A stretch of DNA of 64,000 bases from IMG/VR virus record IMGVR_UViG_3300029913_000001, one strand, 5' to 3'. This document shows positions 12,023-44,557 of the stretch, in pieces. Below the pieces are notes generated by a model. It was given only the letters and a program-made list of their open reading frames with translations, was not told where the DNA came from and made no database searches. The stretch is from a virus (taxonomy: Duplodnaviria > Caudoviricetes). The position numbers were made by a program, and so were the translations under genes. How positions within the stretch are numbered: the first letter of the stretch is position 1; every line of letters starts with the position of its first letter.

Positions 12023-12883
12023 TTACTTTTCTTTTATTTCTTTCCATTCATTAACTAACGCTTTTATTTTTTCTACATTTCCAAGAGCTCTAAAATATCT
12101 GTTCGATAAATTACCATTAGATTTATAATTTTCTTGATTATCCCAAATACGACTTATAATCTTCTGGTTATTTTCTACGGTTACAAATGGGTGCCAAATA
12201 TGAGATACAGAACTCGGTAATGTTTTATGTGGGCCGTAAAGTGTGTCCATTACCCGCATTGCGGTAACATCTTCCCCTCCCCAACCACGAAATCTTTCAT
12301 CCCAGCCACCGGTAATTTTAAAAGCCTCCCTTGGCATAATTTGAAATAATGCACCATAACGATGCCCATGGACCGACCCAGACAACCCATTAAAATCTTT
12401 AGTTATTAAAATTTCATCGGTTTCGGGCTCATGATATTTATTATTTGAATTTGTTTGTAACAATTTTTTTGATGCAGATTCATTCAATCGAAAAAATTTT
12501 CTATATGGTATAAACCAGAGCGTATGTTTTTTCTTTCTTGCTTTTCTAATCTCCATAGCACATTTTAACACCGAATCGGTTGATATATATCCATCGGCGT
12601 CCGCAATAACAAAAATATCTCCCAATGCTCTTTTAGCAGCATAATTAACCGCACAGGCTTTTGAAAAGGGTTGGTTATTTATATTAACTTTTTCATCGAT
12701 TCCCATAATAATTTCTGCGCCCGGCAAATGAAATTTCCAATATTCATATAACCAGTTCCAATTTAGAGTTCGTTGATTAGCTGAAGGCGAAGAATAAAAT
12801 GGAACCAGAATGCTAATACCATTGCCTTTCAAGCAAAAAAATTTTGCGATAGTAAATTTAATTAGTTGGTAATTAATTTTCAT
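12023..12883 (-). CDS. Glycosyltransferase, GT-A fold (GT2/GT7-like)
   Basis: FVIADAD (DxD) and GGWDERFRGWGGED motifs. Confidence 0.85.
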   Translation of the reverse strand: MKINYQLIKFTIAKFFCLKGNGISILVPFYSSPSANQRTLNWNWLYEYWKFHLPGAEIIMGIDEKVNINNQPFSKACAVNYAAKRALGDIFVIADADGYISTDSVLKCAMEIRKARKKKHTLWFIPYRKFFRLNESASKKLLQTNSNNKYHEPETDEILITKDFNGLSGSVHGHRYGALFQIMPREAFKITGGWDERFRGWGGEDVTAMRVMDTLYGPHKTLPSSVSHIWHPFVTVENNQKIISRIWDNQENYKSNGNLSNRYFRALGNVEKIKALVNEWKEIKEK

Positions 12884-13644
12884 ATAACTTTTCCTAATTC
12901 TCGAAGTGCATCATAAATTGAAAATTTGACTTCTTCGACAAGAACTCTAGATGGTTCAACCATTTTTCCTAACTCAAATGGCGTTCTAATTGACGCGCTA
13001 TAATCTCGAAATTTAAATAAGCCGCCTTCATTCGCCATTTTTTCGCAAAGTTCTACACGCCGTGGAATTCCGCCAAATGAATCAGCCACAATCATTCCAT
13101 GTAAAGAAGACGTAACTATTCTACGACTAGCACCGATTTCACTAATCACCTGTAACGGCGGATCTAAAGGATTAATTACCTTAATAGAAAATTTATTTGG
13201 AATTAATTTTTTAAATCGACTAACTAATTCTGTATCTCGCCAATGAGGGACAATTCCCAAATCCCATTGTTTTTTAATTGGCTCAATTAATTCATTTGCT
13301 AATATACCAGGATCGCCCAATGTAAAATTACCGCTAAACCCTCTAGCAGATAATGGGCCGCGCAAAGCTAAAATTTTTGCAGTTGAACCAAACGAGCCCA
13401 ATCTCGAATTCTCAAATAATTTTCCCGACCCCACAATGTAACCATCCCAGTCAGGAGGAATATATTCTAAAATTGATCCGCAAACCGTAACCAATGATCT
13501 CGAAATGGTATCTCTTTCCACTTGTTTAATATCGGCAAACCGCGAAAGAATCAACGGAGTTAACGCATCCCCAAAATTAGGCATTTTATTCCACCAAAAC
13601 GCTTTAATTGAAGAGTTTGCTCTAAAAAATTTTGAAAGAATCAT
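12880..13644 (-). CDS. Polysaccharide pyruvyl transferase-family protein
   Basis: NFGDALTP, GSIL, ALRGPLS, LGDPG and TSSLHGMIVADSFG motifs. Confidence 0.85.
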   Translation of the reverse strand: MILSKFFRANSSIKAFWWNKMPNFGDALTPLILSRFADIKQVERDTISRSLVTVCGSILEYIPPDWDGYIVGSGKLFENSRLGSFGSTAKILALRGPLSARGFSGNFTLGDPGILANELIEPIKKQWDLGIVPHWRDTELVSRFKKLIPNKFSIKVINPLDPPLQVISEIGASRRIVTSSLHGMIVADSFGGIPRRVELCEKMANEGGLFKFRDYSASIRTPFELGKMVEPSRVLVEEVKFSIYDALRELGKVI

Positions 13645-27915: not shown

Positions 27916-28284
27916 TTATACGTATCCTCTTGCAAAATTTTCGATATCATCCTGAAATTTAAAAAGCAAAGCAATCTGTTCATCAGCAATATATAAAATC
28001 GAATCTGTTGATTTTCCGTAAAAATAATGAGGGGAAGGCATTCGAGTTAACCCGATAAGAAGAGCGGCGGTCCATGTAATACCTAGCGGTATACTAAATT
28101 CGTAAAAGGAAATTTTGGCTTCGCGAAAACGTTCAAATCCTTTTTCACTTAATCGCATACTACTATTATTTCCAATACGATGCCACCAAAATTTATCTTC
28201 GCCATATGGCAATTCGATGCCAGTACGGCGCAAATATCCACGATATACTTTAGCAGTCCATTCGTCTTTTGTTAATAAACTCAT
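27916..28284 (-). CDS. Hypothetical protein
   Basis: Intact ORF in operon (WW...N...MRLSEKG...MPSPHY). Confidence 0.65.
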   Translation of the reverse strand: MSLLTKDEWTAKVYRGYLRRTGIELPYGEDKFWWHRIGNNSSMRLSEKGFERFREAKISFYEFSIPLGITWTAALLIGLTRMPSPHYFYGKSTDSILYIADEQIALLFKFQDDIENFARGYV

Positions 28285-29312
28285 AGTGATAAAGTTAATC
28301 CTACGTTAGGAGAGTATCCAATATAAGATACTGGTATTCCAAATCTATGCTCTATGTCCCAAATAAAAAATTTAGTTTTATCTGTTAAATCATCAAACCT
28401 TTTTGCATTAATATTCTCACAATCTAAATAATCAACAAAATTAATAGCTAATTTGGTTGGCCGATTAATTTCAATTGCTCTCTTTAATAATTCATAGTCA
28501 AATCGACCGACTCTTCTTAATTTTTTAGTAACCGTTGTATATTCCTTGATTGAATGAGAATACCCACTTTCCTCCTGTAGCGTTTCCCAATCAATTTCAT
28601 TATATAATGGCACAGCCTGCTGACCGGCTACTCTGATTGGAAAGGTTCGAAGTACCATAACTATTTCATTTACCAATAAAGGACTAATTCCGCATTCACT
28701 GATGCATCCCGACGCAGAAGTATCTCTAGAAGTTGCTTTAGGATAAAATCCGCCGTGATAAAGTGAGAGCCCAAATCCTTGGGTGCCTTCTACCAGAATA
28801 TTTTTACCATCATCGATACCTGTATTTATTTCCTTCGATGCATCAACTATAAAAGATTTAATTTCAGGAATATCTTTTGCTAATATAATATCATTACCAC
28901 GAAGAATCTTACGAGATACCGCCGCGCCAACGCCACATAATGTCGAACTAATATTAGTTCGCATATTAAGGTCATTTTCATCTCTAATATCTTGAGGCTG
29001 AATTATCATAGCATTTGCGTCGATACCAACTCGTTCTGGTCCTAATTTTAATAAATTTAATTCGGCTACCAGAACATCGATATCAATTAAACCTCCGGAC
29101 GGAATTAGCAATCTAGAGTTTAACCTAAGAATTCCGCTAGGTATTTGTCGAAGCACATGATTTACTCCATAATTATCGGTAAAACAATGTCCCGAATTTG
29201 GGCCGCCGCACCTAACACATATATCGATATTTTCTTTTTGCGTTATGAAAGAAGAAATTTTACCTTTTCCTTCAGAGCCAAACTGACCGCCAACAACTAC
29301 CCAAACGCCCAT
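28281..29312 (-). CDS. purZ: Short-form adenylosuccinate synthetase-family enzyme with PurZ/PurZ0 signature
   Basis: GGQFGSEGKG (Ser where PurA has Asp), GPNSGH, EGTQGFGLS, RTFPIRVAG, EYTTVTKKLRRVG and NFVDY; ATG at 29312 after AGGAG. Confidence 0.65.
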   Translation of the reverse strand: MGVWVVVGGQFGSEGKGKISSFITQKENIDICVRCGGPNSGHCFTDNYGVNHVLRQIPSGILRLNSRLLIPSGGLIDIDVLVAELNLLKLGPERVGIDANAMIIQPQDIRDENDLNMRTNISSTLCGVGAAVSRKILRGNDIILAKDIPEIKSFIVDASKEINTGIDDGKNILVEGTQGFGLSLYHGGFYPKATSRDTSASGCISECGISPLLVNEIVMVLRTFPIRVAGQQAVPLYNEIDWETLQEESGYSHSIKEYTTVTKKLRRVGRFDYELLKRAIEINRPTKLAINFVDYLDCENINAKRFDDLTDKTKFFIWDIEHRFGIPVSYIGYSPNVGLTLSL

Positions 29313-29313
29313 A

Positions 29314-30306
29314 TTAACTCCTAGGAAAAGCCGTTCCAAGCAACTGAGAAAAATAATTTGCCTGGTCACTAATTTTATTTAACTCATACTTCCCACAGAA
29401 TTTTAAAAAGTGAAATCCTAGCTGAGGGACCGACTTTGGTTCACACGCATCGGCTATTGTTTCAGAAATTACCGTACATATTTCATCCGGTTGTTTAGAC
29501 AAATCAACTAATCCCACATTACGGTTGTAATCATCTAACACTCGATGCTCTAGGCCCTCATGATCTGTCCAACGAGTTAACATAAAAGCATTCCAAGAAA
29601 ATCCCTGTCTATTTCGATCATCAAACGCTTCTTGCATACCCACTTTATTCTTTGATCCTTTTTTACGAGCTCCCGGGTAGGCGGCGAATACATTATCTGT
29701 TACGCAACCACGCACCGCTTTCTCAAATACAGACCAGTGTGGGTCATCTGGCATTTTTGGAGAGCCGGTTTTTTTATCTTTTACAGGATTATTTTTATAA
29801 TCAAAAATACCGTTAAGTGTAATAGTTTGATCCATAATACCATCATACATTGTAACATTGTCGGCGAGTAGCTGAACAAAATCTTTATCCGAACTTACAA
29901 CAATATGGGCATCATCAGGATGGGACTGAATAAATCCAGCTACCAAATCATCGGCTTCTAAAATGGGATTATATAAAACAGTGCAATTGGTACGCTCAGT
30001 TATAAACTTTTGAAAATCGGAAAACGCCGAATAAAAAATAGTGTCTAATTCTTGCTGTGCCGGCGTCGCTAGCGCTCTTTTTTCCGCGCGATTTCTTTTA
30101 TATGGAGCGTAAACCGATTTCCTCCACGATTTTCCATCAAATGCAAAAATTATATGGTCGGCTTTCTGCACTCGCCATAACTTTCCCAAACTTGCGAAAA
30201 TAATATGCAGACACATACCGGCAATTTCGTCAGGTGTTCCTTTAACCGTGTACTTGGACCGGTTAAATAAATGGGATGCGTCAACAATTAAAAATGTATT
30301 CTTCAT
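29314..30306 (-). CDS. rnh: 5'-3' exonuclease / T4 RNase H
   Basis: LIVDAS, FAFDGKSWRK, YKRNR, LEADD, SSDKDFVQL and DNV motifs. Confidence 0.9.
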   Translation of the reverse strand: MKNTFLIVDASHLFNRSKYTVKGTPDEIAGMCLHIIFASLGKLWRVQKADHIIFAFDGKSWRKSVYAPYKRNRAEKRALATPAQQELDTIFYSAFSDFQKFITERTNCTVLYNPILEADDLVAGFIQSHPDDAHIVVSSDKDFVQLLADNVTMYDGIMDQTITLNGIFDYKNNPVKDKKTGSPKMPDDPHWSVFEKAVRGCVTDNVFAAYPGARKKGSKNKVGMQEAFDDRNRQGFSWNAFMLTRWTDHEGLEHRVLDDYNRNVGLVDLSKQPDEICTVISETIADACEPKSVPQLGFHFLKFCGKYELNKISDQANYFSQLLGTAFPRS

Positions 30307-31200: not shown

Positions 31201-32052
31201 CTAACTACCCCATACATTTTTCCAGAGTTCAACCTGGAGTCTCGGTGAATATCTATACCCATTTGTGATCGCCAATTCAGCAACTCTTTTATTTGTTAAA
31301 TTATACGTTTCGGTGGTTCCCCCGACTGGCATGACATACACCGAACCGGTAAACCCAGCATCTCGATATTCTTTCACCGCTAATTTTGCATCGTCGAAAT
31401 CTTCTTCGGTCCCGACAACAAACTTCAAATATGTTCTACTACCAGGAATCATTGTATATCCTATAACTACCTTAGGTTTAATAGATGACTCCCAGGTTTC
31501 ACCTGAGCAAGGCAATTTTGCGCTAACCGAAAAAGTAGTTTCTAACTTGCTATTATTAAAGTGCCGACAAAGAGCCATTCTTAGTTCACTAGTAATTTCC
31601 ATCGTACCATTCGTTTCAAAAGTGAGATGTGTTAAGCCCATATCGCGTTTAACAAATTCATCTAACAATTCTGGGTATTGTTTTTGCCAGGCCAATAATG
31701 GTTCTCCACCAGTTAAAATTAAATGGCAATCCTGATTAAATTTCCCGTTATGCAATAATAGCTGAATACGATCTGCAATTTGTGATATCGTTTGTTCTGG
31801 ACTAAAATCCTTAAATCGTGGATCCCACGACATATAGGAATCGCAGCCTGTAGAAACCAATGGAGCATCTTCATATTTTGTCAATTGTTCGGGTAAAATT
31901 GTAAAGCGTTCTACACTTTTTTCGCCGCGCGGCATTGAGAAGCCTTCGCACTTTTTATTGCAGCCAAATACCCTTAGAAAAATTGAAGGAACCCCCTGAT
32001 ACATTCCTTCTCCCTGAAGCGATTCGAAAATTTCACCAACCTTAATTGCCAT
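31201..32052 (-). CDS. queE: 7-carboxy-7-deazaguanine synthase (radical SAM)
   Basis: EIFESLQGEG, FLRVFGCNKKC...CDS, LTGGEPLL, FETNGT and SPRLQV motifs. Confidence 0.88.
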   Translation of the reverse strand: MAIKVGEIFESLQGEGMYQGVPSIFLRVFGCNKKCEGFSMPRGEKSVERFTILPEQLTKYEDAPLVSTGCDSYMSWDPRFKDFSPEQTISQIADRIQLLLHNGKFNQDCHLILTGGEPLLAWQKQYPELLDEFVKRDMGLTHLTFETNGTMEITSELRMALCRHFNNSKLETTFSVSAKLPCSGETWESSIKPKVVIGYTMIPGSRTYLKFVVGTEEDFDDAKLAVKEYRDAGFTGSVYVMPVGGTTETYNLTNKRVAELAITNGYRYSPRLQVELWKNVWGS

Positions 32053-32059
32053 AATTCTC

Positions 32060-32590
32060 CTAATTTACATAAATCAACTTAATTTTGGTTTCATCAAACA
32101 TCGAAAGTGAAATTTTAAAATCCTCACCCCATCGAGGATGATCTACGTCTGGGTTAATGCACGAAATTTCTTTAATACCGGCTTGAATAATTGCTCCTGC
32201 ACAACCTTAGCAAGGAAACCAATCTAATGCAATCCCCATTCCTTCTAGCGACGTTCCGAGACGAGCTGCATTATAAATTGCATTCGTTTCGGCATGAACA
32301 GTATATTTGTATTTTAACGGACGCTCATTTCTTTCATCTATTTTCTTAATTGCTTCGAGGCGAACTGCACGCGGAATTGAACAACCCACTTGACGTTCGC
32401 GTTCTTGTAATTTCAAGTCAAATGCCTCTCCTGAATCGTATACTCCTCTAGGAAACCCGTTATATCCAATACTAACGATTGAATTAGTAGTTGGATTGTA
32501 AATTACGGCGCCAACCTTTGAGGATGTATCTTTGCTCCACTTAGCAAAAAATGATGCAGCCTCTACAAATCTTTTATTCCAATTAATCAT
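32060..32590 (-). pseudogene. dCMP deaminase with one in-frame TAA in the PCxxC motif
   Basis: KVGAVI, GYNGFPRG and HAETNAI motifs; WFPC*GCAGAIIQAGI...RWGEDF continues in frame to TAG at 32060-32062. Confidence 0.85.
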
Positions 32591-33645
32591 TATTTAAAAA
32601 ACCTCATCATACCGTGTGAACTAAAAAACTTTGAATATGAATTATCCAAATAATTTTGGGTAGCAGATCGATCATACAATGAAAGAATAAGTCGTATTCG
32701 CTCGACTAAATTCATTCGATTTCTTTCATAAGATTTCCAATTTTCTGTCCACACAGACGGATACAAAAAATCTCGATCATGCTTAAAAATTTCTGAATAA
32801 CTTAATCTATCCGGGGCAATTGGTATTGCACCTAAAATTGGTCCCTCGGATCCCATCGAAATACCCAAGGTTTCCTGCAATGCCGCGGAAAAAACAATTT
32901 TACTCTTTGCCAGCAAAGTATGATACTCATGTTTACTTAGCGGTGTATCTTGGCAAACAATAAATTTCATCTCTGGAATATATTTAGCAAGATCTCGAAA
33001 AATTTCAACTTGCTTTTCTGGTGCGATTCGATGGGGAAATAAAATAATATCTTCTTTTGGAATCGTTTGATATGGTTTTAATACATCAACCATATATTCA
33101 TAAGGATGCCCGCATCGAATAATTCTTAATGGTCCAATATCTTCACCTGTATGCGGATATGCTTTGAGGAATAAATCCTTATGATAATTGGTTGCAAAAT
33201 ATACATGATCATATGCAAAAAACATGCTCTGCTCTGCATACTGAATCCATTTTTTTGGACCAATTAATCTTCCGAGAAAATCTTGAGAGTCATAATTTCC
33301 TGCATGTATCTGGGCATGAAGTGTTACTGGAATACCCAGTAATTCACTCATATATTTTACATTAATTACTGAGGGATTCCAAAAATCAGTAAACAGAAAA
33401 TGATCACCGGCTTTAATAATGCCATCACAAAACATTCTACTAATCTGTTCAAGCTGATTACTTTTCCAGGCATTTGTTCCACCGAAGTTTAAAAATGCTC
33501 CTGGAGTAGTTGCCTCTGGGATGTTAGTTGGGCCAGTTATAACCGTTACATCAAATCCTTTTGATCGAAGTAACTTTGGAATATGAACGCTCCACTGGGA
33601 AGTGTAACGATTTTCCAAACTTTCGAGTTCAACAATATATATCAT
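32590..33645 (-). CDS. GT-B fold glycosyltransferase
   Basis: HFLFTDFWNP, HAGNYD, LFPHRIAPEKQ, QETLGI and PDRLSYSE motifs; TAATG coupling to the deaminase gene. Confidence 0.75.
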   Translation of the reverse strand: MIYIVELESLENRYTSQWSVHIPKLLRSKGFDVTVITGPTNIPEATTPGAFLNFGGTNAWKSNQLEQISRMFCDGIIKAGDHFLFTDFWNPSVINVKYMSELLGIPVTLHAQIHAGNYDSQDFLGRLIGPKKWIQYAEQSMFFAYDHVYFATNYHKDLFLKAYPHTGEDIGPLRIIRCGHPYEYMVDVLKPYQTIPKEDIILFPHRIAPEKQVEIFRDLAKYIPEMKFIVCQDTPLSKHEYHTLLAKSKIVFSAALQETLGISMGSEGPILGAIPIAPDRLSYSEIFKHDRDFLYPSVWTENWKSYERNRMNLVERIRLILSLYDRSATQNYLDNSYSKFFSSHGMMRFFK

Positions 33646-33653
33646 AATTAATC

Positions 33654-34106
33654 CTATTGGATAAATTCCATATGAGCGCCGTTTTCTCCATCTTCGGAAA
33701 TATCAATAATTACATCTCTGCTAGGATATCTTTCCTCAATCTGAATAAACAAATCCTCACACATCATTTCACAGGATCTATAATCCAATTTAAGAATTTT
33801 ATCATCATAAAAACTTTCGAGCCACTGTTTAAAAAGGATAAATTCTATATCTCGATCGTTCGAATTAACAGAAATTTGAACTTTAAAATGGAAAATATGC
33901 CGATGAGGTGAAGCAAGATAAGAAACTTTTTCTAACGCAGGATCGTCTGCTGCGGCAGGATAATAATGAATGCCAGATTTTTGGAATGTAACCCAGATAA
34001 ATTTATTTACATTTGATAATCTAAGAGCTTGATTATTCTTATTTGCTATTTTAATAGCAGATACTATTAATGCTTGTTCCTCTTCAAGAGTGTTTTTATT
34101 TACCAT
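33654..34106 (-). CDS. QueD-like T-fold protein with LxxxHRHxF motif (DpdL-like)
   Basis: YLASPHRHIFHF, RDIEF, SCEM and EDGENGA motifs. Confidence 0.7.
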   Translation of the reverse strand: MVNKNTLEEEQALIVSAIKIANKNNQALRLSNVNKFIWVTFQKSGIHYYPAAADDPALEKVSYLASPHRHIFHFKVQISVNSNDRDIEFILFKQWLESFYDDKILKLDYRSCEMMCEDLFIQIEERYPSRDVIIDISEDGENGAHMEFIQ

Positions 34107-34993
34107 TTAATATATCCTCTTCCATAATTCTTTGGCCTATTTAAGGCATCGCTGAATGCTTTCTGCCATTCACTATTACGATCATAACAGGTAGTCCAGA
34201 ATTTGTCAATGTCTAAATAATTTGATTCAATATAGAGTCTAGCCTTATGCATTGCATCTAGAAAACATGATGCTCTGGGACTAGGGTGAACCACAACAGC
34301 AGAGGCCCAATCCATTTGAGAAGTATCCATCTTTTTACCAACCGCATTAATAATCAAAGCTTCGTTATTCAAAATATTTTCCGAGGAAGTTTCATTGCCA
34401 GCTCGAATATCAATGATTATATCATAGCTATCAGAATGTCGTTCATTAAGAGTTATACCTTCCGATAGCCAAATATCTAAATTACTATGCCCATCAATAT
34501 CAATAACTCCGATATTATTATATAGTTTTAATGTCTGATAGGCAACATATGCAAGAAATCCAGTTCCTAATATTAAAATATTTTTACTATAATAAATCTT
34601 ATCCGGCATTAATGTACACGGAAATAATATCAAATTAATTCCGCACGCAACCGGTTCTAAGATGTATTTCGGCGCAGCTTCTGGAACAAATACATATTCA
34701 TTTGCACGAACGTTATAAAAATCTGAATATGCAGGCTCGCCGCGAGTCGCGACATAATCTCCAACGCTGATATCCTTTATATCCTTACCAACTTTTGTTA
34801 CCTGTCCCAAACCTTCATGTCCGGACATAGTATAAGGTAAGGTAAATTTACCTTGCATCATTGCAATATCACTGCGACATATACCGGTCATTATACTTTT
34901 AACTTCAATTTGATTGCTATCTGGCTCGGGTTTATCCCAAAACATTTCTCGAAACTTATCGTCCCCATCTGTTACTAATAATCGAGTTTTCAT
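34100..34993 (-). CDS. Zn-dependent medium-chain dehydrogenase
   Basis: GICRSD and GHEGLG catalytic Zn ligands, EPVAC, GTGFLA Rossmann loop. Confidence 0.85.
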   Translation of the reverse strand: MKTRLLVTDGDDKFREMFWDKPEPDSNQIEVKSIMTGICRSDIAMMQGKFTLPYTMSGHEGLGQVTKVGKDIKDISVGDYVATRGEPAYSDFYNVRANEYVFVPEAAPKYILEPVACGINLILFPCTLMPDKIYYSKNILILGTGFLAYVAYQTLKLYNNIGVIDIDGHSNLDIWLSEGITLNERHSDSYDIIIDIRAGNETSSENILNNEALIINAVGKKMDTSQMDWASAVVVHPSPRASCFLDAMHKARLYIESNYLDIDKFWTTCYDRNSEWQKAFSDALNRPKNYGRGYIKW

Positions 34994-35037
34994 TTATACC
35001 TTATCTAAAATCACTATTTGATTATTTTCGGCATCAT

Positions 35038-35910
35038 TTATAGCGTATGTAAAAACCTATCAATTTTATATTGGTTATACCAAAAATCTTCATTATCAAA
35101 ATTATGAAGACAATCTAAAATCATTGATTCATATGCTTCTTCTGGACAAAGACCCAATGGAAAGAAATCTTTTCCATTGAAAAAAATACCAATTCGATCT
35201 GGTTCGTTTGTTTTCCACGCGGCATCTAAAATATATGTTTTCCCGCAAATATCGGCTACAATTTTTGCAGTATCGTCCACATCATATACTCCGTTTTCAT
35301 TTACCGGTCCATAATCAGAACCATCGTGCGCAATAGTTTTTAAATCCCAAACCTGACGTTTAATATTCTCAACAACGGTGCAATACTCCCAATTTGCACC
35401 GGCTAGTGCAATCATAATGCTAGCAAGATGTGGAAGAATATCCTTACTAATTCCACCAAGAGATTTTGCTTTTTCAGTAAACCACGAACCCGGGCGAGGA
35501 ACTCTATTCTTAGTTCGCCACTCGATATCTATTATCTCTGTTTTTGCCGCTCGTTCGATTAACGCCGGAATTTCTTTTCGCCACATATTATTTTTAGTCA
35601 TAGTAATTCGAGTGTTAGGATTTAATCCTACCAATCGATTCCATCGTAATTGGCTTTGCACTCCCGGCTTTTCGACGAATACAATATCCGTTTTAGCTGC
35701 AATTTTTTCAGCTATATCTTCATGCAAATAATTAGGAACACAAATATGGGCTATATCAAAATGCATTGTACTTGGAATCTGTTCAACCGAAGTATAATCC
35801 GGAAACTTCAAAACATCGGGATCTACTCTAATAATAGTAGATCCCGCTCGTTCGTAAATTGGCCTATATACAGCATCGCCAAAACCACAACCAACAATTA
35901 ATATATTCAT
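35038..35910 (-). CDS. Gfo/Idh/MocA-family oxidoreductase
   Basis: IVGCGFG, ICVPNYLH, VFVEKPG and GGI..D..PH motifs. Confidence 0.85.
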   Translation of the reverse strand: MNILIVGCGFGDAVYRPIYERAGSTIIRVDPDVLKFPDYTSVEQIPSTMHFDIAHICVPNYLHEDIAEKIAAKTDIVFVEKPGVQSQLRWNRLVGLNPNTRITMTKNNMWRKEIPALIERAAKTEIIDIEWRTKNRVPRPGSWFTEKAKSLGGISKDILPHLASIMIALAGANWEYCTVVENIKRQVWDLKTIAHDGSDYGPVNENGVYDVDDTAKIVADICGKTYILDAAWKTNEPDRIGIFFNGKDFFPLGLCPEEAYESMILDCLHNFDNEDFWYNQYKIDRFLHTL

Positions 35911-35912
35911 TA

Positions 35913-36608
35913 TTAACCTTTCATAGATGCAACAATATGAAAAAATTCATCCTTTTGGGATTGTGATTCCCTGATAGAACCGCGTACAACACTTGTTGTA
36001 AATGCGCTTTCAGCAGCCTGAACGCCGCGCTCTGTAAGACATCCATGAGATGCCTTAATTAGTACGGCTACACCCTTTGCTTCTGTAATACGTTCAATTT
36101 CATCTGCTATCTGAACCGTTAATTCTTCTTGAATAGTTGGACGATTTGAAAACCATTCCGTAATGCGATTAAATTTAGATAATCCAATTACTTTCTTACC
36201 GGGGAAAACACCGATATATGCAACACCGGTAATATTTTGGAAATGGTGGGCACAAACCGAATGAATTGCTATTGGTCCTGCTACTAATAATTGATCATAT
36301 TCTTTTGCGTTCGGAAAACTAGTAACCTTAGGCTCTGGCAAATAACGCCCACTAAGAGTTTCAGTAATATACATCTTAGCCATACGGTGAGCGGTATCTT
36401 TTGTATTATGATCGTTACGAGTATCTATTACTAGACTAGATAATACCGATTCCATTTTCCTTGCTACTTCGTCTTCTAATAAATGTAATTCGGGGGGATT
36501 GATAAATTTACTAATATTATCCGTTGATTTAAAATTTGCATTTGCTCGAGTAATACGTTCTTTAATAACCTCGGAAATACAAACCGTTCCTTCTACAATA
36601 TTCTGCAT
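35913..36608 (-). CDS. folE: GTP cyclohydrolase I
   Basis: TAHRMAKMY, SVCAHH, GLSKFNRI, IQEELT and HGCLTERGV motifs. Confidence 0.93.
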   Translation of the reverse strand: MQNIVEGTVCISEVIKERITRANANFKSTDNISKFINPPELHLLEDEVARKMESVLSSLVIDTRNDHNTKDTAHRMAKMYITETLSGRYLPEPKVTSFPNAKEYDQLLVAGPIAIHSVCAHHFQNITGVAYIGVFPGKKVIGLSKFNRITEWFSNRPTIQEELTVQIADEIERITEAKGVAVLIKASHGCLTERGVQAAESAFTTSVVRGSIRESQSQKDEFFHIVASMKG

Positions 36609-36635
36609 TATTATCCTTTTTATTCGATATAATTA

Positions 36636-36664
36636 ATTATAAACCATAAAATAGTATTTGTCAA
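36636..36664 (-). promoter_or_regulatory. sigma70 consensus promoter for the folE operon
   Basis: TTGACA-17 nt-TATAAT. Confidence 0.9.
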
Positions 36665-36736
36665 ACATGAATAAATAATGTTGGCCACTACGCTAAGAAC
36701 GTATGCCAACTCTAAAGCCCCAAGGAGGCAATCAGC

Positions 36737-37869
36737 ATGGATATTTATTCAGACAAAACTATCAACTTCGTATTATGTTCTATGAAAATTCATCATGGAA
36801 AATATTCTTATCCTCAAACCATATTTCGAATTAACACCGAAAAAGTAATTATAACATGCCCTATACACGGAGATTTTCAGCAAACACCCAAGATGCATCT
36901 TAACGGTACTAACTGCCGATTATGCTCTTATAAAAATAACTCTGAAAAGTATACAAGAACAAAAGAACAATTCATTAATTTAGCCAATAAAAAACATTTG
37001 AACAAATATTCATATGATAAATCAATATATGTAGGCTGCAAAATTCCATTAATAATTACCTGCCCTATACACGGAGATTTTCAGCAACTACCGGCCAATC
37101 ATTTGATAGAAAGTGGTTGTTCCTATTGTTCTCATGGTGCGGTACGGCAAATTTTATTCGAAAGGCAAATATAATTCATAAAAAATTCTATACATATCAA
37201 GATTCGGACTGTAGGGGCAGTGAAATACCATTAACTATTACCTGTCCCATTCATGGAAATTTTAGTCAGAAACCAGTTAATCATCTTCGTGGCAGTGGTT
37301 GTCCTGTATGTGGCCGGGATCGAACTACCTGGAATTTAAATGATTTTCTATTAACAGCTAATAAATTACATAATAAATATTATTCTTATGAAAAAATTAT
37401 TTGGCGCGGTGCACAAGAAAAAATTGAAATTATTTGTCCAAAGCACGGATCTTTTTACCAAAAAGCATACGGTCATATATATGGTGCCGGTTGCCCAAAA
37501 TGCCATCTAAGCCACGGTGAAAGAGTAGTTGAAAAATACCTATCAGAAAATCATATAATATTTTCTGTGCAAATTAAAATTCCAGAATGACGTGACAAAA
37601 AATCGATGCCATTTGATTTCGGTATTTTTAATTCTTCAAATAAATTATTAGGACTTATCGAATATCAAGGAGGTCATCATTATCTTAAAGTTAAATGGAA
37701 TAAAAACATGACAGAACTTGAGGCTGAAAGACGATTAAAGAAAGTTCAACATCATGATAAGCTAAAAATGGAATTTTGCCAGAAAAATAATATTCCATTT
37801 TTAGCTATTCACTATCAAGATAATGTTTCTGCGGTACTTTCAAAATTTATTACTCGTATAAATTATTAA
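36737..37869 (+). pseudogene. Disrupted free-standing endonuclease (repeated CPIHG zinc-finger units plus PD-(D/E)XK domain) inserted antisense between dpdA and folE
   Basis: Four TCPxHGxFxQ units; frameshift near 37150; in-frame TGA at 37588-37590 (KIPE*RDKKSMPFDF); IEYQGGHHY; late promoter ATAAATA at 36671. Confidence 0.8.
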
Positions 37870-39409
37870 AAGATGTTAGGGAATTTTTAGTCTTTTTTCC
37901 GGTATTCCTACTAGGTGTACCGGAAAATTTTTGCCAGTATGCAGTATAGTGATCTATTAATTTCATAGCCTTACCATAATCACTGGTTGAAAAAATATCC
38001 TCGATAATGTCTTTTAAATACAGTCGATCATAGTACATCATTGGTTTATTACCTTTTGCAAGAGTTGATAATGCCGCCGGATAAAGCCCAGAGTCATATT
38101 TCTTATTGCATTCTATTACAGTCATAATATGCATATATACATTATGTGCCATTTGCAAAGCGTAACTAAACGAATCAAACGAAGTCTTTCCGATTTTGCC
38201 TAACTTATTTAGATCCGTTGGCCCGTATGAACAAATATCATGCCCGGTTAATCGAGCACTAATCGGACTGTCGATAAATTCGTCAAATATACCATCTTGT
38301 TCGAGAATATCTTTTAAGGATCGCATGTCGGTTGAATATTTTTTATCATCGATAAACGGCGCAACAAAAAAAGTCCAATCATCTTTAGATGCATCGAATA
38401 ATTTATAATAAATTGTGGCAAACGTCGAAGAAAGGAACGGTGTTGCGCAATCATAACTAAGCGTTATTTTTGGATTATGATATTTGCGCAATGCTTTCTG
38501 CACATCTGTTAATAACAAACTCCATTCTAAATTGCTATTGCCTAAAAAGTGAATCCAATCGTGAATGCCGGGTTCCAAAAGGCCATCAAATCTCTGCTGA
38601 ACCAACATCTTTAGAGCTAGGTGAGGATCCGCAGATGTCTGACTACCATAGGCCCAGCCATTAAACGGAGATTCATATTGTTTCGGATCGCAATATTTCT
38701 TTACTTGCTTATACCAATCTTCTGCTTCGGCGTGTGTATTTCCCTGCAAAATATTAAGAAATTTACACGACCCGTTTCGATTTCGCATAAAATATTCGTT
38801 ATTAATTTGCGTTGCCTTAACTGCGTCTGCATATGTATTAATGCCTGTTAACTTTCGAACTCGATCTTTCTTCACAATAACTGGACTAACATCAAGTGTC
38901 ATCCCGTATTGTGCTTTTAGATTGCAATCCATCCAATTCAAAACTTGTTTACGTTTTGCCCCAGCCCTAGGACAATTAGGATCTTTCCAATCGCCGGACC
39001 ATTTTTCATTTCCGGATAGAATCTGAAACCCGCCACTATCGGCTAGAATAAAATCAGTTTGATCCCGCTCATATACCATCGATTCAGATTGTGCAATTTT
39101 TGTTAAATCCGTGTGCCCGGCTGAATAAAGATTATGACTATAATTAAAATAACCATTCTTTTTATCTAACCAATTTAAACCATCAATTGATCCGTTGAAT
39201 CCGACAGGAATTCTAGACGGATCAACCTCACCACGAAGATGATATTTTTGTCGTCCGATATATCGTATAAAAAATGTGCTAAGTGCAGGCAAATATAATG
39301 AATACTTCGCTAATCCGGTTTTTGGATCAAATAACTCTTTATCAATATTATGCTGTGAAAATTCCACTATGTTGCCACCTGTATCGGTAATACTCGAACT
39401 GTTTGCCAA
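37850..39409 (-). CDS. dpdA: DpdA-like DNA-guanine transglycosylase (TGT fold)
   Basis: LADSGGFQI, MTLD, LNILQG, GWAYG, HFLG and SYDCATPF motifs; clustered with folE and queE. Confidence 0.75.
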   Translation of the reverse strand: MANSSSITDTGGNIVEFSQHNIDKELFDPKTGLAKYSLYLPALSTFFIRYIGRQKYHLRGEVDPSRIPVGFNGSIDGLNWLDKKNGYFNYSHNLYSAGHTDLTKIAQSESMVYERDQTDFILADSGGFQILSGNEKWSGDWKDPNCPRAGAKRKQVLNWMDCNLKAQYGMTLDVSPVIVKKDRVRKLTGINTYADAVKATQINNEYFMRNRNGSCKFLNILQGNTHAEAEDWYKQVKKYCDPKQYESPFNGWAYGSQTSADPHLALKMLVQQRFDGLLEPGIHDWIHFLGNSNLEWSLLLTDVQKALRKYHNPKITLSYDCATPFLSSTFATIYYKLFDASKDDWTFFVAPFIDDKKYSTDMRSLKDILEQDGIFDEFIDSPISARLTGHDICSYGPTDLNKLGKIGKTSFDSFSYALQMAHNVYMHIMTVIECNKKYDSGLYPAALSTLAKGNKPMMYYDRLYLKDIIEDIFSTSDYGKAMKLIDHYTAYWQKFSGTPSRNTGKKTKNSLTSFNNLYE

Positions 39410-40413: not shown

Positions 40414-41622
40414 TTATTCAAAAAAATCAAAAAAGGTATTAATTTTACGAGTCCCTTCTTCTATTGCTTTCCATATTGGTAACTTTCCCAAGAGATTTTC
40501 TAACTTTTTATCTACCACCGCGGCAATCATTGCATCATTGTCAAATGGTAGTTTAGTAAACCAATCCGGTAGATGGGATTCATCTGTTGGATAAGCAACC
40601 GAAGTCATATTCAGTTGATTCTCTTTTAAAGGGCAAACCACACACTTCTGCCCATCAACGATACGAGTATGAACATTATCGTTATTCATTTTTCTTAATG
40701 AATTCCAATTAATTGCCGCTCTGACGTGTCCAGGAACTCGATTACCTTTTCCTTGTGCAATTTGGTCCGCATAAAATGTTAGCTTGTTGACACGCTTCGG
40801 TGTACCTTGCTCATGTAATGGCAATGCTTTAAACTTATCCTTGAATATATTAATTTTTGCTGTTAAATCATCAACTGTTTTACCTTGTAGTAAATCCATT
40901 AATATTTCACTTAAAAATTTCTGGCAAACTTCCGGGGTATCACTGCGACGCAAATCTAATCCCATTGCTTTTAATTTTAAATGATCGTCACCATAAAACT
41001 TACCATCTTTAAAATAATTAAGAATTGCATATCGTTTTTTAGTAATATATAAACCACGATAACCTACTGATTCGCAAGATGATTTAATTAATTGACCAAA
41101 TTTATCCGGACAATTATACGATCTCTTCATATAATCGGCGTAAGAATCGTTAACTTGCTCTCCAATCTTCAAATATAGCTGAACTGCAATATCTCGATTC
41201 CATTCAACTTGACCTTCATCTATCATATCTTTCATCACTGGCCAAGCCGAAAATTGAGTTGAATCTGTATCCCCATAATGAATTGCTCTTCCTAGATAGT
41301 TATATTCTCCAGTTATACATTCATTAACAAACGAACTCTGATGCCTTACAATTCCCCTACCGGTTAAAGTAACCGATTGCCCTACACGTTTGTCAAAAAA
41401 ACGAGAACTTGGTTGGAGCAGCGTTCCATATGTCGCATTGAGTAGGAGTTTTTTTGCGTGCTGCAATCCATCATAATATTCTACCTGTTTTTTAATTTCC
41501 GATATGTTTTTAGAAAAAATTTTTCCATTTCGGATTTCAAGATTATTATTTGTTATAAATTGTTTAATATCCGAGATATTTCCATTAACAAATAACTCCC
41601 GAAGTTTTTTTACTTCCACCAT
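40414..41622 (-). CDS. gp43: Family B DNA polymerase, C-terminal subunit
   Basis: Motif B KLLLNATYG, motif C YGDTDS, KKRYA and GLDLRRSDTP; own AAGGA RBS. Confidence 0.93.
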   Translation of the reverse strand: MVEVKKLRELFVNGNISDIKQFITNNNLEIRNGKIFSKNISEIKKQVEYYDGLQHAKKLLLNATYGTLLQPSSRFFDKRVGQSVTLTGRGIVRHQSSFVNECITGEYNYLGRAIHYGDTDSTQFSAWPVMKDMIDEGQVEWNRDIAVQLYLKIGEQVNDSYADYMKRSYNCPDKFGQLIKSSCESVGYRGLYITKKRYAILNYFKDGKFYGDDHLKLKAMGLDLRRSDTPEVCQKFLSEILMDLLQGKTVDDLTAKINIFKDKFKALPLHEQGTPKRVNKLTFYADQIAQGKGNRVPGHVRAAINWNSLRKMNNDNVHTRIVDGQKCVVCPLKENQLNMTSVAYPTDESHLPDWFTKLPFDNDAMIAAVVDKKLENLLGKLPIWKAIEEGTRKINTFFDFFE

Positions 41623-42803
41623 ATATGATCCTTATTATAATTATACTCAGATAATGGCATCATTACAACACCTATTTCCTTTAATGTTTTACCACCATAT
41701 ATTTCCGAAAACCTAATTCGTTCAGCAAATTTCCTTTTAGTGGTGCCGGGAATAACAAAATTTAGTATTGATAAATCCCTGGGACTATGATTTTGCAAGG
41801 CACACCGTGATTTCATATACTTTAAAAAATCACCAAGTAAAAAATAATAATTTTCAAAATTAGCAACAATTACTTTTTCCAATGATGTGCCCGCTACTCG
41901 ATAATATGTATTTGAAAAATCTTTCTTCCCGATTAATTTAAATTTTTTATCACGAATATCTAATACTCTTTTATTATTTGGATTATTCGCAGTTGCAAAC
42001 CCTTTATTTTTAAAAATTCTTCCTTCGATAAATCCTTCAGGACGTGGCGCATTTTCATTAATTCTTAAAGTTTCCCCGGTAGTATTATTTGACACCCATC
42101 TTGATTCTGTTATATATGAATAATCGGTGTGTTTTAACCAATCGGGGTATCCCTTAACAAACCCAGGTAAAATTTCATGCATTTGTGCTACTTCTCTCGT
42201 TTTAGGATTATACTGCCATATTTTACCAGTAAAATTCCGGCTGCATAAATCCTTTGACTCTTGGGTACGCACTCTACCTGTTTGAAAAGGCTCCCACTCA
42301 TCTGATTGAGATCCAATCGACATACGTAATAACTCTTTGGTTATTTTATGACGATAAATATTCGTATCCGCAAATAATTTCGACATATAATCACGCTGTT
42401 CTTGTGTTCGCACTTTCCCGGTATTATTTTCAGATATTAGTTTTGCAAATTCTATACGAACGGCCTGATATAACCGGCAGTTAGTAATTCCTCTAGATTT
42501 TGAGACACGGCGCATCTGATTAAATGAGTAAATACAACTGCGATCACGAATTGATTTAAATAATAGATAATGTAGAAGATAATGAGCTTTAGGTTCAACA
42601 ACGATAATATTCCAGGATTCATGCTTATATTCAGGAAATATCGCCACCGGCAAAATATGATGTTTCTCTACTGAACCCAAACCCGATTTGACTAAATCCT
42701 GCGGTAAAAATTTTAGCAATTTAAAATATCGAATAAATTGTCTTTCGTTTTTAACTTTTCCGGTATTGCGAAACATATTTTCCATGTAAAATAAATCGAA
42801 CAT
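41610..42803 (-). CDS. HNH homing endonuclease (Mob-like) between the polymerase halves
   Basis: EKHHILP...N...AHYLLHYLL, NUMOD-like RTQEQRDYMS repeats and GFxxGR motifs. Confidence 0.85.
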   Translation of the reverse strand: MFDLFYMENMFRNTGKVKNERQFIRYFKLLKFLPQDLVKSGLGSVEKHHILPVAIFPEYKHESWNIIVVEPKAHYLLHYLLFKSIRDRSCIYSFNQMRRVSKSRGITNCRLYQAVRIEFAKLISENNTGKVRTQEQRDYMSKLFADTNIYRHKITKELLRMSIGSQSDEWEPFQTGRVRTQESKDLCSRNFTGKIWQYNPKTREVAQMHEILPGFVKGYPDWLKHTDYSYITESRWVSNNTTGETLRINENAPRPEGFIEGRIFKNKGFATANNPNNKRVLDIRDKKFKLIGKKDFSNTYYRVAGTSLEKVIVANFENYYFLLGDFLKYMKSRCALQNHSPRDLSILNFVIPGTTKRKFAERIRFSEIYGGKTLKEIGVVMMPLSEYNYNKDHIWWK

Positions 42804-42835
42804 TTAATAATCCCTATATAATGTTTTTATCATAG

Positions 42836-42900
42836 TGAACTACCGCGATTCAATGCGTTCTAACGCACGTGAAGTACACACGGGCTTGACTCGTAAAGCC
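42836..42900 (-). other. Four abutting hairpins directly after the stop codon of the polymerase N-terminal half
   Basis: Minus strand: GGCUU/AAGCC, CGUG/CACG, UGCGU/ACGCA and UGAAU/GUUCA stems with 0-1 nt spacers. Confidence 0.65.
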
Positions 42901-42901
42901 A

Positions 42902-44557
42902 CTAAGAGGAAAGAGCATCAATTAAATTATCTGGTATCGTTATACCAAATGATAAATCTACAAATTCTTCTTTTTTTGCTTGTAGTTCTTTTCTTTCTGC
43001 ATACCATTTAGCTAATAATCCAGGAATAATCGCTTCTTGATCATAACTAAAAATTGTTCCGTTACCACTTAGCATCCATTTCTGATCGCTATAAAAAATG
43101 ATATCATAAATCTGAGAAGCTGAAAGAGTATCACTTGTACCTGTTGATTCCCAATCAATAATAATATCTACGCCAGGTTTTCGATCAATAACCGCCTGAT
43201 ATTCTAGAGTTGAAAAAACACCCTCCCACGCATGAGAATAAGTCATGCCTTTTTGTGACATTTTTTCAGCAACAAATGCCTCTGTAAGTGTGGGGCGCAA
43301 CTGTCCAATAATAGTTTCTATTCCCATGTTTAATGCACGAATTGTACTAGGATATAGTGAATTAATATCAATTACACCTAGCCATTCGTGAATTCCTACT
43401 TTTGGATCGGCTACATATGCGCCTACTGCGGCTGGCTCGTCATCGTCTTTCTGAGAACTATATTTTGGTTTATTTGGAACAATCATACCCAAATCATGGG
43501 CTCTATTAATAATAGCCTGGTCTGTTTTGGCTACGGTTCCCATACAAGTAGGTAAAAGAGTGGTTGTATCATGGGCGACAACATTAATAAGTTCAATAAA
43601 CTTTAATTTATTGTCTAACTGCTCCAATAGATTAACATCTTGCCTATTATATCTAATAAATAATTCAAAATCATTATTATATAAATCATCTAATGAACCT
43701 TTATATTCAGTCTTACTACTTCCTAATTCATATTCAGCAATAGAATTTAATGAATATGAATGACGTTCTTCATATGTGAATTTTCGGTATAAATCCATCA
43801 TATCGATATGAATCTTGCCAACTAATTCATACGTCTTAAATTCTTTACCATATTTTTCAACTACTTTAGCCTTTGGTTTTTCATTCCAGGATAATTCACA
43901 TAATCTACGAGTATCATCTTTACTCATCACTCGTTGGATTCGATTAACAAGATATGGAATATCGAATCCTTCGCTATTCCATCCTGATATAACATCGCTG
44001 TCTTCTAATATATCGAGAGCGGCATTAAGCATATCAACTTCATTATCGAACACATATGTGTTCTCGAATTTATTTGCTATACTCTGCCCCTCGTCGAAAG
44101 TAATAGTTTTAGGTGGAATTGCTACAGTAATTAGTTTATTACACCAAACTAGATCAATTGTAATTGCGGTTATTTTATTAAAGGGGTCCTCGATGGGCGA
44201 GTATCCCTTATCCTTATCGAAATCAACTTCGATATCGATAAGAGCAACATGAAGATCAGGAGCGGGCTTACCTTTATAATTTTCCGATAAACATTTAAAA
44301 GTAAGATTTAAATCTGACTCCCAAATCTTTTTATCTGTACCTTTAAGGATCGCTAGTTCTTTGTAAAATTCACTAGAAGTTTTAGGGGTAATTTTTGTTA
44401 GAGGCGTATTATAAATTGATTTATAAGACCCATTCGGATCATCGATATAGAAACTATAATCGACAGGATAATTATTGAACACTCTCTTGCCATTGACTCG
44501 TTCGATAACTTCAATACGATCATTCTTACGATCTATTCTAGCTGTAATATATGACAT
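42902..44557 (-). CDS. gp43: Family B DNA polymerase, N-terminal subunit (3'-5' exonuclease and motif A)
   Basis: DIEVD, GWNSEGFDIPY, YNRQDV, DINSLYPS and KWYAERK motifs. Confidence 0.95.
   Translation of the reverse strand: MSYITARIDRKNDRIEVIERVNGKRVFNNYPVDYSFYIDDPNGSYKSIYNTPLTKITPKTSSEFYKELAILKGTDKKIWESDLNLTFKCLSENYKGKPAPDLHVALIDIEVDFDKDKGYSPIEDPFNKITAITIDLVWCNKLITVAIPPKTITFDEGQSIANKFENTYVFDNEVDMLNAALDILEDSDVISGWNSEGFDIPYLVNRIQRVMSKDDTRRLCELSWNEKPKAKVVEKYGKEFKTYELVGKIHIDMMDLYRKFTYEERHSYSLNSIAEYELGSSKTEYKGSLDDLYNNDFELFIRYNRQDVNLLEQLDNKLKFIELINVVAHDTTTLLPTCMGTVAKTDQAIINRAHDLGMIVPNKPKYSSQKDDDEPAAVGAYVADPKVGIHEWLGVIDINSLYPSTIRALNMGIETIIGQLRPTLTEAFVAEKMSQKGMTYSHAWEGVFSTLEYQAVIDRKPGVDIIIDWESTGTSDTLSASQIYDIIFYSDQKWMLSGNGTIFSYDQEAIIPGLLAKWYAERKELQAKKEEFVDLSFGITIPDNLIDALSS

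Follow-up and report, generated by a model that had tools for sequence, protein, structure and literature searches.

A deazaguanine DNA-modification cluster of a large phage, joined by a glycosyltransferase and an optional pair of oxidoreductases

A window of 64 kb of Caudoviricetes phage DNA, from the IMG/VR genome IMGVR_UViG_3300029913_000001, contains a gene cluster at positions 31201–39409, built around dpdA, the gene of a putative DNA (deaza)guanine transglycosylase. The cluster is a variant of the known deazaguanine DNA-modification systems; new are the glycosyltransferase (GT) joined to it and two optional oxidoreductases. The analysis confirms the cluster, and also that GT and oxidoreductases are linked to dpdA, a linkage which is widespread. 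The likeliest product is a 7-deazaguanine in DNA that bears a sugar altered by the two oxidoreductases; the chances for and against this reading are about evenly balanced. The literature searched yielded no account of such a base, in line with an earlier reading of the sequence alone (the original prediction), which had proposed a glycosylated hypermodification not known to be described.

The cluster region holds eight open reading frames (ORFs) on the minus strand, at coordinates first given by that reading, in the order DpdA, FolE, Gfo/Idh/MocA oxidoreductase, zinc MDR dehydrogenase, DpdL, GT, dCMP-deaminase-like protein and QueE. Coordinates, profiles, motifs and predicted folds agree with the families originally assigned to them. 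The deaminase-like frame is described further below; the other elements, with protein lengths in amino acids (aa), are:

37850–39409, minus strand: DpdA-like DNA (deaza)guanine transglycosylase, 519 aa, with a divergent fold of the tRNA-guanine transglycosylase (TGT) type (predicted structure, motifs)
36636–36664, minus strand: sigma-70-type promoter, TTGACA-17-TATAAT, 12 of 12 matches
35913–36608, minus strand: FolE, GTP cyclohydrolase I (PF01227, E 1.2e-45; phrog_2197, E 1e-51; NCBIfam FolE models)
35038–35910, minus strand: Gfo/Idh/MocA NAD(P) oxidoreductase, 290 aa, optional accessory (PF01408, E 1.5e-8, 35.8 bits, cut-off 24)
34100–34993, minus strand: zinc MDR-type dehydrogenase (ADH), 297 aa, optional accessory (PF08240, E 7e-11, 42.8 bits, cut-off 23.5)
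33654–34106, minus strand: DpdL, QueD-like T-fold paralogue, predicted 7-carboxy-7-deazaguanine (CDG) decarboxylase, 150 aa (LASPHRHIF; phrog_17812, E 1e-35)
32590–33645, minus strand: GT4-like retaining GT-B glycosyltransferase, 351 aa (predicted structure, donor-site motifs)
31201–32052, minus strand: QueE, radical-SAM CDG synthase (phrog_2076, E 9e-50)

Linkage of these genes was evaluated on IMG/VR. Of the first 600 pattern matches of each scan, more than 560 were confirmed as relatives (at least 567 in the profile scan seeded with the GT), and the best 80 per seed, GT or DpdL, were analysed, 160 loci in total; both samples, consisting of the best-scoring loci, describe this clade and not all phages with DpdL. 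In the first scan, seeded with the GT, 13 loci feature PolB, a structural protein, DpdA, (Gfo, ADH), DpdL, GT, FolE, QueE and RNaseH. Of the 80 GT-seeded loci, 75 have DpdL 0.7 kb upstream of the GT, and the remaining five extend no more than about 1 kb in that direction; DpdA is found upstream in 65 of the 80 (the misses are contig ends), and FolE is present in 54 and QueE in 53. With DpdL as the seed, a GT is present in 67 of the 70 loci having at least 1.5 kb of downstream flank. The GTs found after DpdL form two subfamilies, 53–73% and 22–26% identical to the query GT set. Members of the divergent one (loci L121, L123, L126, L129–L131, L134, L136–L139 and others) likewise stand after DpdL; where these loci extend far enough, most have a GalE-like gene 1–2 kb further downstream.

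Cultured phages carry the GT as well: a tblastn search of 50,697 phage records found it in PA5oct-like Pseudomonas phages, Acidovorax phage ACP17, Sinorhizobium phage Phosso, Xanthomonas phages BUDD/X1 and Burkholderia phage BCSR5. Its distance from a DpdL homologue is about 3 kb at most, and in PA5oct, ACP17 and Phosso the two genes adjoin directly; QueE is present in each of these loci, FolE and a TGT-like gene in most. The proximity of DpdL and GT is kept, despite rearranged gene order. A megablast search of the 8.2-kb block against the same records gave no match. The dpdL and dpdA genes of ACP17 were used by the authors who named DpdL, whose paper mentions no glycosyltransferase (PMC10516641).

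The original prediction had asked for a gene-neighbourhood analysis, expecting both the GT and the oxidoreductases to co-occur with dpdA. For the GT this is borne out, by its near-constant place in the cluster, close to DpdL and DpdA in both samples and in the five cultured lineages; the oxidoreductase pair also co-occurs with dpdA, in only 26 of the 160 loci.

Two further genes recur in the block. Of the 80 DpdL-seeded loci, 35 carry a GalE-like gene. Relatives have, directly following the GT, a UDP-glucose 4-epimerase scoring above the GalE equivalog cut-off (265.2 bits, cut-off 262.3; L007:11172-12206), and this linkage argues for a UDP-hexose as the likely sugar donor. A phosphoribosyltransferase (PF00156) is found in 70 of the 160 loci, just after the GT in L007 (L007:12490-12957), and could convert a free deazapurine to its nucleotide. 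An additional conserved protein of about 175 aa, c9, is encoded between DpdA and DpdL in 142 of the 160 loci and in ACP17 (L007:7345-7875; ACP17, L003:7320-7718). It is not found in this window, in L004 and L005, or in the PA5oct locus examined. Pfam and PDB sequence searches give no match for c9, while weak atlas leads point to TIM-barrel glycosidases.

Structure prediction was needed, since Pfam, NCBIfam and PDB sequence profiles miss DpdA, DpdL and the GT. For the GT, the Pfam model Glycos_transf_1 (PF00534) gives E 0.072 and 13 bits, under the cut-off of 26.4. The AlphaFold2 (AF2) model of the GT (mean predicted local distance difference test score, pLDDT, 86.6) shows a GT-B fold of two Rossmann domains, with VIA Z-scores of 22.2 to BshA and 20–21 to sucrose-phosphate synthase (SPS), MshA, PimA, glycogen synthase and GlgM; alignments cover about 300 of the 351 residues, with Foldseek E-values of about 1e-8. 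R206, K211, E258 and E267 are invariant: they form the donor-binding motifs R-x4-K and E-x7/8-E (here E-x8-E) of the C-terminal domain, which align to motifs in the GT4 structures WlaC (6eji) and 8xsg. The protein is a glycosyltransferase of the GT4 type, presumably retaining, that uses a nucleoside diphosphate (NDP) sugar. The loop TTPGAFLNFGGTN (residues 46–58), highly conserved and modelled with low confidence, is a candidate acceptor-binding element by inference only. Whether an enzyme binds DNA or a small molecule cannot be told from the isoelectric points of the GT and DpdA families. Of 8,000 word-sharing candidates scored against the GT, 7,999 reach E <= 0.001; among the matches listed (n=120), identity is 53–100%.

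The DpdA model (pLDDT 90.3), a TIM barrel of the TGT type, matches, in the Foldseek search of PDB, tRNA-guanine transglycosylase of Z. mobilis in all of the top 50 places (E 7e-7, probability 1.0), with a target-normalised template-modelling (TM) score of about 0.53. D124 (DSGGFQ) and D320 (SYDCATP) are invariant across 40 family members; from what is known of TGT, we take them to correspond to the catalytic D102 and D280 of the Z. mobilis enzyme. The family profile aligns to ACP17 DpdA with an hhalign probability of 95.6% (E 1.3e-8), and to DpdA3 of phage phiST with a probability of 65%. None of the 40 members is detected by the Pfam or NCBIfam TGT models, and, of the canonical TGT zinc site CxCxxC...H, no CxCxxC is present in the 519 aa. 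Because of the TGT-fold matches, the conserved aspartate motifs and the profile alignment to ACP17 DpdA, the protein is assigned, on the strength of its model, as a divergent, long DpdA. In metagenomes, this long family comprises 711 clusters at 50% identity.

DpdL is recognised by its signature LxxxHRHxF, present instead of the CxxxHGH of QueD (PMC10516641); the original prediction, which had named this signature, agrees with the published description. Among 13 members, H68 and H70 do not vary and R69 hardly does. Identity to the reference DpdL of phiST is 36–37% (tblastn, E 2e-13). The catalytic cysteine of PTPS and QueD is missing, and the Pfam PTPS model does not detect the protein. DpdL is accompanied by adjacent DpdA, FolE and QueE, with no QueD found within the 64 kb.

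QueE is also matched by NCBIfam QueE models (E 1e-9 to 9e-15). The original prediction had noted the lack of queC, queF and a canonical queD, and this stands: no canonical QueD was found in the window by profile and phmmer searches of all six-frame ORFs, and neither QueC nor QueF turned up among the Pfam and PHROG scans of the window, of which one covered the best 25 of 49 matched families. Relatives keep QueD elsewhere: in PA5oct, FolE and QueD are 55 kb from DpdA, and 22 of the 160 related loci have a QueD within 3–10 kb of GT or DpdL. The genome may therefore still encode a QueD outside the window.

Both oxidoreductases have the motifs of their families, together with an N-terminal Rossmann domain in Gfo and a GroES-like domain in the MDR enzyme. 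In the Gfo protein the VGCGFG loop, E80-K-P and D157-x3-H161 are intact; by analogy to inositol dehydrogenase, we assume these to include its catalytic triad. Among PDB entries, the Gfo family profile matches best the glycoside 3-dehydrogenase DgpA (E 3.4e-9), followed by glucuronide 3-dehydrogenase and inositol dehydrogenases. DgpA oxidises C3 of the sugar in C-glycosides. The MDR dehydrogenase conserves the zinc-ligand motifs GICRSD (C39), GHE (H59-E60) and E113-P and the cofactor loop GTGFLA, and is devoid of the structural-zinc lobe; its profile matches threonine, polyol and alcohol dehydrogenases in PDB, mainly in the N-terminal domain. The most likely substrate of the pair is the sugar or its nucleotide donor; another polyol or the base are alternatives.

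The two genes are always found together, and inside the cluster they occur in three arrangements. In this window, as in the two relatives closest to it, they stand between FolE and DpdL; in the 26 IMG/VR loci they come directly after DpdA, before the next conserved gene. In PA5oct-like phages they are 25 kb away. In ACP17 the pair is missing. It is thus an optional module which, in uncultivated relatives, is found only inside the cluster of Dpd genes and GT; since the pair is optional, the acceptor of the GT is independent of it. The PA5oct homologues (MK797984.1, 250869–252637; L019:5870-7638) may be inactive or repurposed.

From these genes a pathway may be proposed. FolE would convert GTP to dihydroneopterin triphosphate; QueD, provided either by the host or by a gene outside the window, as in PA5oct, would form 6-carboxytetrahydropterin (CPH4), from which QueE would produce CDG. 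DpdL may then convert CDG, probably to 7-deazaguanine as in phiST, and the divergent TGT-fold DpdA would exchange guanine in DNA for the deazapurine. The GT4-type enzyme is expected to add a hexose from a UDP-sugar to the deazaguanine, either once the base is in DNA or beforehand, while it is free. The Gfo and MDR enzymes, lastly, would most likely remodel the sugar or the nucleotide donor by oxidation of the ring and re-reduction, resulting in epimerisation or in a keto sugar. More tentatively, the replacement of guanine by a hexosylated 7-deazaguanine may be extended to a large clade of big phages with global distribution, including PA5oct, of which a subset, including the present phage, would oxidise or epimerise the sugar further. 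An experimental hint comes from PA5oct: its DNA resists cleavage at G-containing restriction sites, and the phage is restricted by nucleases sensing hypermodified DNA, one of which is specific for modified G; the authors of that study noted QueE and PTPS genes, and did not identify the modified base (PMC12191111).

Several points weigh against the proposed pathway. The acceptor atom is its weak point, because 7-deazaguanine has no hydroxyl. Candidates are the exocyclic N2, C7, or the carboxyl of CDG, if DpdL is not a decarboxylase in this clade; its decarboxylase activity has never been demonstrated, not even by the authors who named it (PMC10516641). N2-glycosylated 7-deazaguanines are represented by huimycin and dapiramicin (PMC7439116). 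Most of the enzymes closest to the GT in structure have small molecules, rather than DNA, as acceptors, and T4 DNA glucosyltransferases are not among its top structural matches. Glycosylation of the free base before insertion is therefore a live option, and the unusual length of DpdA could, if glycosylation precedes insertion, accommodate the bulkier base. To these points are to be added the lack of a canonical QueD in the window and the PA5oct copies of the oxidoreductases, in which glycine loop, EKP motif and zinc ligands are no longer present.

A last point, that phiST makes plain 2'-deoxy-7-deazaguanosine (dDG) through DpdL, reaching 100% dDG with no GT (PMC10516641), leads to an alternative explanation, which is unlikely on the whole: DNA of this phage would contain plain dDG, while GT and oxidoreductases would glycosylate a target other than DNA (such as a component of the host envelope, or a protein of virion or host) and share with the Dpd genes only their early or middle expression. 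GT4 enzymes commonly modify lipids, small molecules and proteins, and Xanthomonas phage PhiXhv-15 encodes a protein distantly related to the GT beside GlmS and a BshB-like deacetylase, with no Dpd genes. Yet the adjacency of DpdL and GT outlasts rearrangement in at least six lineages and in about 95% of 150 informative loci, and it is into this block, not elsewhere, that GalE, the phosphoribosyltransferase and the oxidoreductase pair have been inserted. This persistent adjacency to DpdL and DpdA argues against a GT acting outside the modification pathway, and equally against its action on a different DNA base, considered below.

It is less probable still that FolE, DpdL, the two reductases and the GT make a soluble glycosylated pterin or deazapurine, comparable to the cyanobacterial biopterin glucoside or to huimycin, rather than a DNA base. 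One promoter in this window precedes an uninterrupted run of FolE, Gfo, ADH, DpdL and GT, and the GT of huimycin works on free 7-deazaguanine (PMC7439116). The structural matches of our GT include tetrahydrobiopterin glucosyltransferase (9v0l, 9v0w) and tRNA-queuosine mannosyltransferase, all of the GT4 type, but dozens of other GT4 enzymes score at least as well. DpdL, moreover, does not have the catalytic cysteine of PTPS and QueD, and in most relatives FolE is far from the GT while DpdA is always close: the missing cysteine and the constant DpdA therefore speak against a soluble product. The reductases, in addition, are optional, and no phage role is known for such a metabolite.

A GT directed to another DNA base, such as a hydroxylated or hydroxymethylated pyrimidine, with the Dpd genes nearby as part of a general DNA-modification island, is very improbable: every DNA glycosylation described to date concerns a pyrimidine (PMC13326640) and a dCMP-deaminase-like gene adjoins the GT here, but this gene is broken and unique to this phage, the restriction pattern of PA5oct indicates G (PMC12191111), and no thymidylate-synthase-like hydroxylase or hydroxymethylase is found in the syntenic blocks or in the scans of the window (one covering the best 25 of 49 families).

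Among described systems, the closest in gene content is the dDG pathway of phiST, made of FolE, QueD, QueE, DpdL and DpdA3 (PMC10516641): FolE, QueE, DpdL and a DpdA of the TGT superfamily are present here, and QueC and QueF are absent from both, as far as the scans of this window go. The cluster differs from it in a DpdA twice as long and only remotely alignable to DpdA3, in the lack of QueD, MazG and a kinase, and in the presence of a GT4 glycosyltransferase and of the optional oxidoreductase pair. With PA5oct-like jumbo phages (Wroclawvirus) and ACP17 it shares the block PolB, structural protein, DpdA, GT, DpdL, QueE and RNaseH, with identities of 36–42% for the GT, 48–54% for DpdL and 33% for DpdA; unlike in PA5oct, where FolE, QueD and the oxidoreductases are at the distances given above, all but QueD are gathered in one 8-kb block.

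The proposed scheme, a replaced base followed by a phage GT, resembles those of T-even glucosyl-hydroxymethylcytosine and of the arabinosyl-5-hydroxycytosine of RB69 and DLP3, and such phage systems sometimes include phage-encoded nucleotide-sugar enzymes (PMC13326640). Their acceptors are pyrimidine hydroxyls, whereas here the acceptor is presumed to be a deazapurine and the GT is GT4-like, with no relation to T4 AGT or BGT. A GT acting on a 7-deazaguanine scaffold from FolE, QueD and QueE is also known for huimycin and dapiramicin (PMC7439116) and for glycosyl-queuosine in tRNA, where QTMAN (Q9VXN0) has a GT4-type fold and is among the structural matches of our GT. In those cases, in contrast, the products are a secondary metabolite or a tRNA base, no DpdA is involved, and no relationship specific to HuiG or QTMAN was seen at the sequence level.

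There is a fair chance, close to even, that the cluster encodes the first glycosylated purine of DNA. If so, it would be the first in any natural DNA, produced through a GT4-type enzyme, DpdL and a new, long subfamily of DpdA. To our knowledge, the deazaguanine bases of DNA described so far all carry small substituents. Since known glycosylations are confined to pyrimidines, a deazaguanine bearing a sugar would therefore be a new class of hypermodification. The module is widespread, as indicated by the number of IMG/VR relatives found per scan and of DpdA clusters, and its presence in cultured phages of Pseudomonas, Acidovorax, Xanthomonas, Burkholderia and Sinorhizobium makes the chemistry directly testable. 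In E. coli, DpdL and DpdA alone gave no dDG (PMC10516641), which may be explained by the GT-bearing module. The modification would be of relevance to the restriction and CRISPR resistance of therapeutic phages, PA5oct being a therapeutic candidate, to the question of what is attacked by nucleases that sense modification (END nucleases and Dag glycosylases, for example), and to sequencing artefacts; tools for site-specific purine glycosylation are a possible outcome.

Expression of the cluster may be considered from its layout. Overlapping or near-adjacent starts and stops, and a consensus sigma-70 promoter before folE, had both been reported by the original prediction and are both present. The promoter lies 28 nt upstream of the folE start, inside an intergenic gap of 128 nt; from base composition, about 0.02 sites of the form TTGACA-17-TATAAT are expected in the stretch. 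The genes that follow are separated by gaps of 2 nt (folE/Gfo), 44 nt (Gfo/ADH) and 8 nt (dpdL/GT), or overlap by 7 nt (ADH/dpdL) and 1 nt (GT/deaminase). The claim that the operon is co-oriented holds for the eight cluster ORFs, and fails for the interval between dpdA and folE, which contains three ORFs on the plus strand:

36737–37869, plus strand: degraded Hef-like homing endonuclease, three ORFs (DUF723 zinc-ribbon repeats, DUF2726 nuclease domain)

These remains, with one frameshift and one in-frame stop, occupy 1.2 kb and split dpdA from folE: the block therefore consists of at least two transcription units. They are homologous to EST35_0312 of PA5oct, which splits the DNA polymerase of that phage; the closest relative, L005, does not have them, and its folE directly follows dpdA. 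The homing endonuclease is an insertion outside the pathway.

The dCMP deaminase had originally been counted as a member of the operon, and was rejected as such:

32059–32590, minus strand: dCMP-deaminase-like gene, interrupted (PF00383, E 4e-12)

An in-frame TAA at 32207–32209 falls within its PCxxC zinc motif (PC*GC); the frame is then open for 48 codons, and the read-through translation has a normal C-terminus. An independent ENA metagenome contig (L186) is 100% identical over 2.7 kb, TAA included. The gene is found in none of the related loci examined: interrupted, and missing from the closest relatives, it is to be placed outside the module. It is probably a recently acquired pseudogene, although the TAA could alternatively represent a case of read-through or suppression.

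The window has a G+C content of about 35% and encodes T4-type structural proteins (Gp23 capsid protein, prohead protease, portal and baseplate proteins); no tRNA genes were found in it. The GT is encoded, letter for letter, on at least 18 metagenome contigs, the longest of 292,778 bp, from which a genome size of about 290 kb is derived: the phage is a distant relative, of about 290 kb, of Pseudomonas phage PA5oct. As in PA5oct, the family-B DNA polymerase (40414–44557, minus strand) is encoded by two ORFs, split by a free-standing HNH homing endonuclease.

A second glycosyltransferase, of the GT2 family, is encoded at 12023–13644 (minus strand), beside the portal gene, and overlaps a polysaccharide pyruvyl-transferase-like gene. 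Close homologues of the two are found only in Tunturiibacter phage Tunturi_5 (47–60% identity). This pair (12–13.6 kb) was considered as a member of the system and rejected, as it is shared only with Tunturi_5 and sits among structural genes; it shows no linkage with the Dpd genes and may serve for virion glycosylation.

Finally, an adenylosuccinate-synthetase-like gene at 28281–29369 (minus strand) is intermediate between PurA and PurZ, scoring 308.9 bits with NF003295 (cut-off 368) and 218.8 with the PurZ model NF038379 (cut-off 300). It is located 1.8 kb downstream of queE and, therefore, adenine may be modified too in the same genome.

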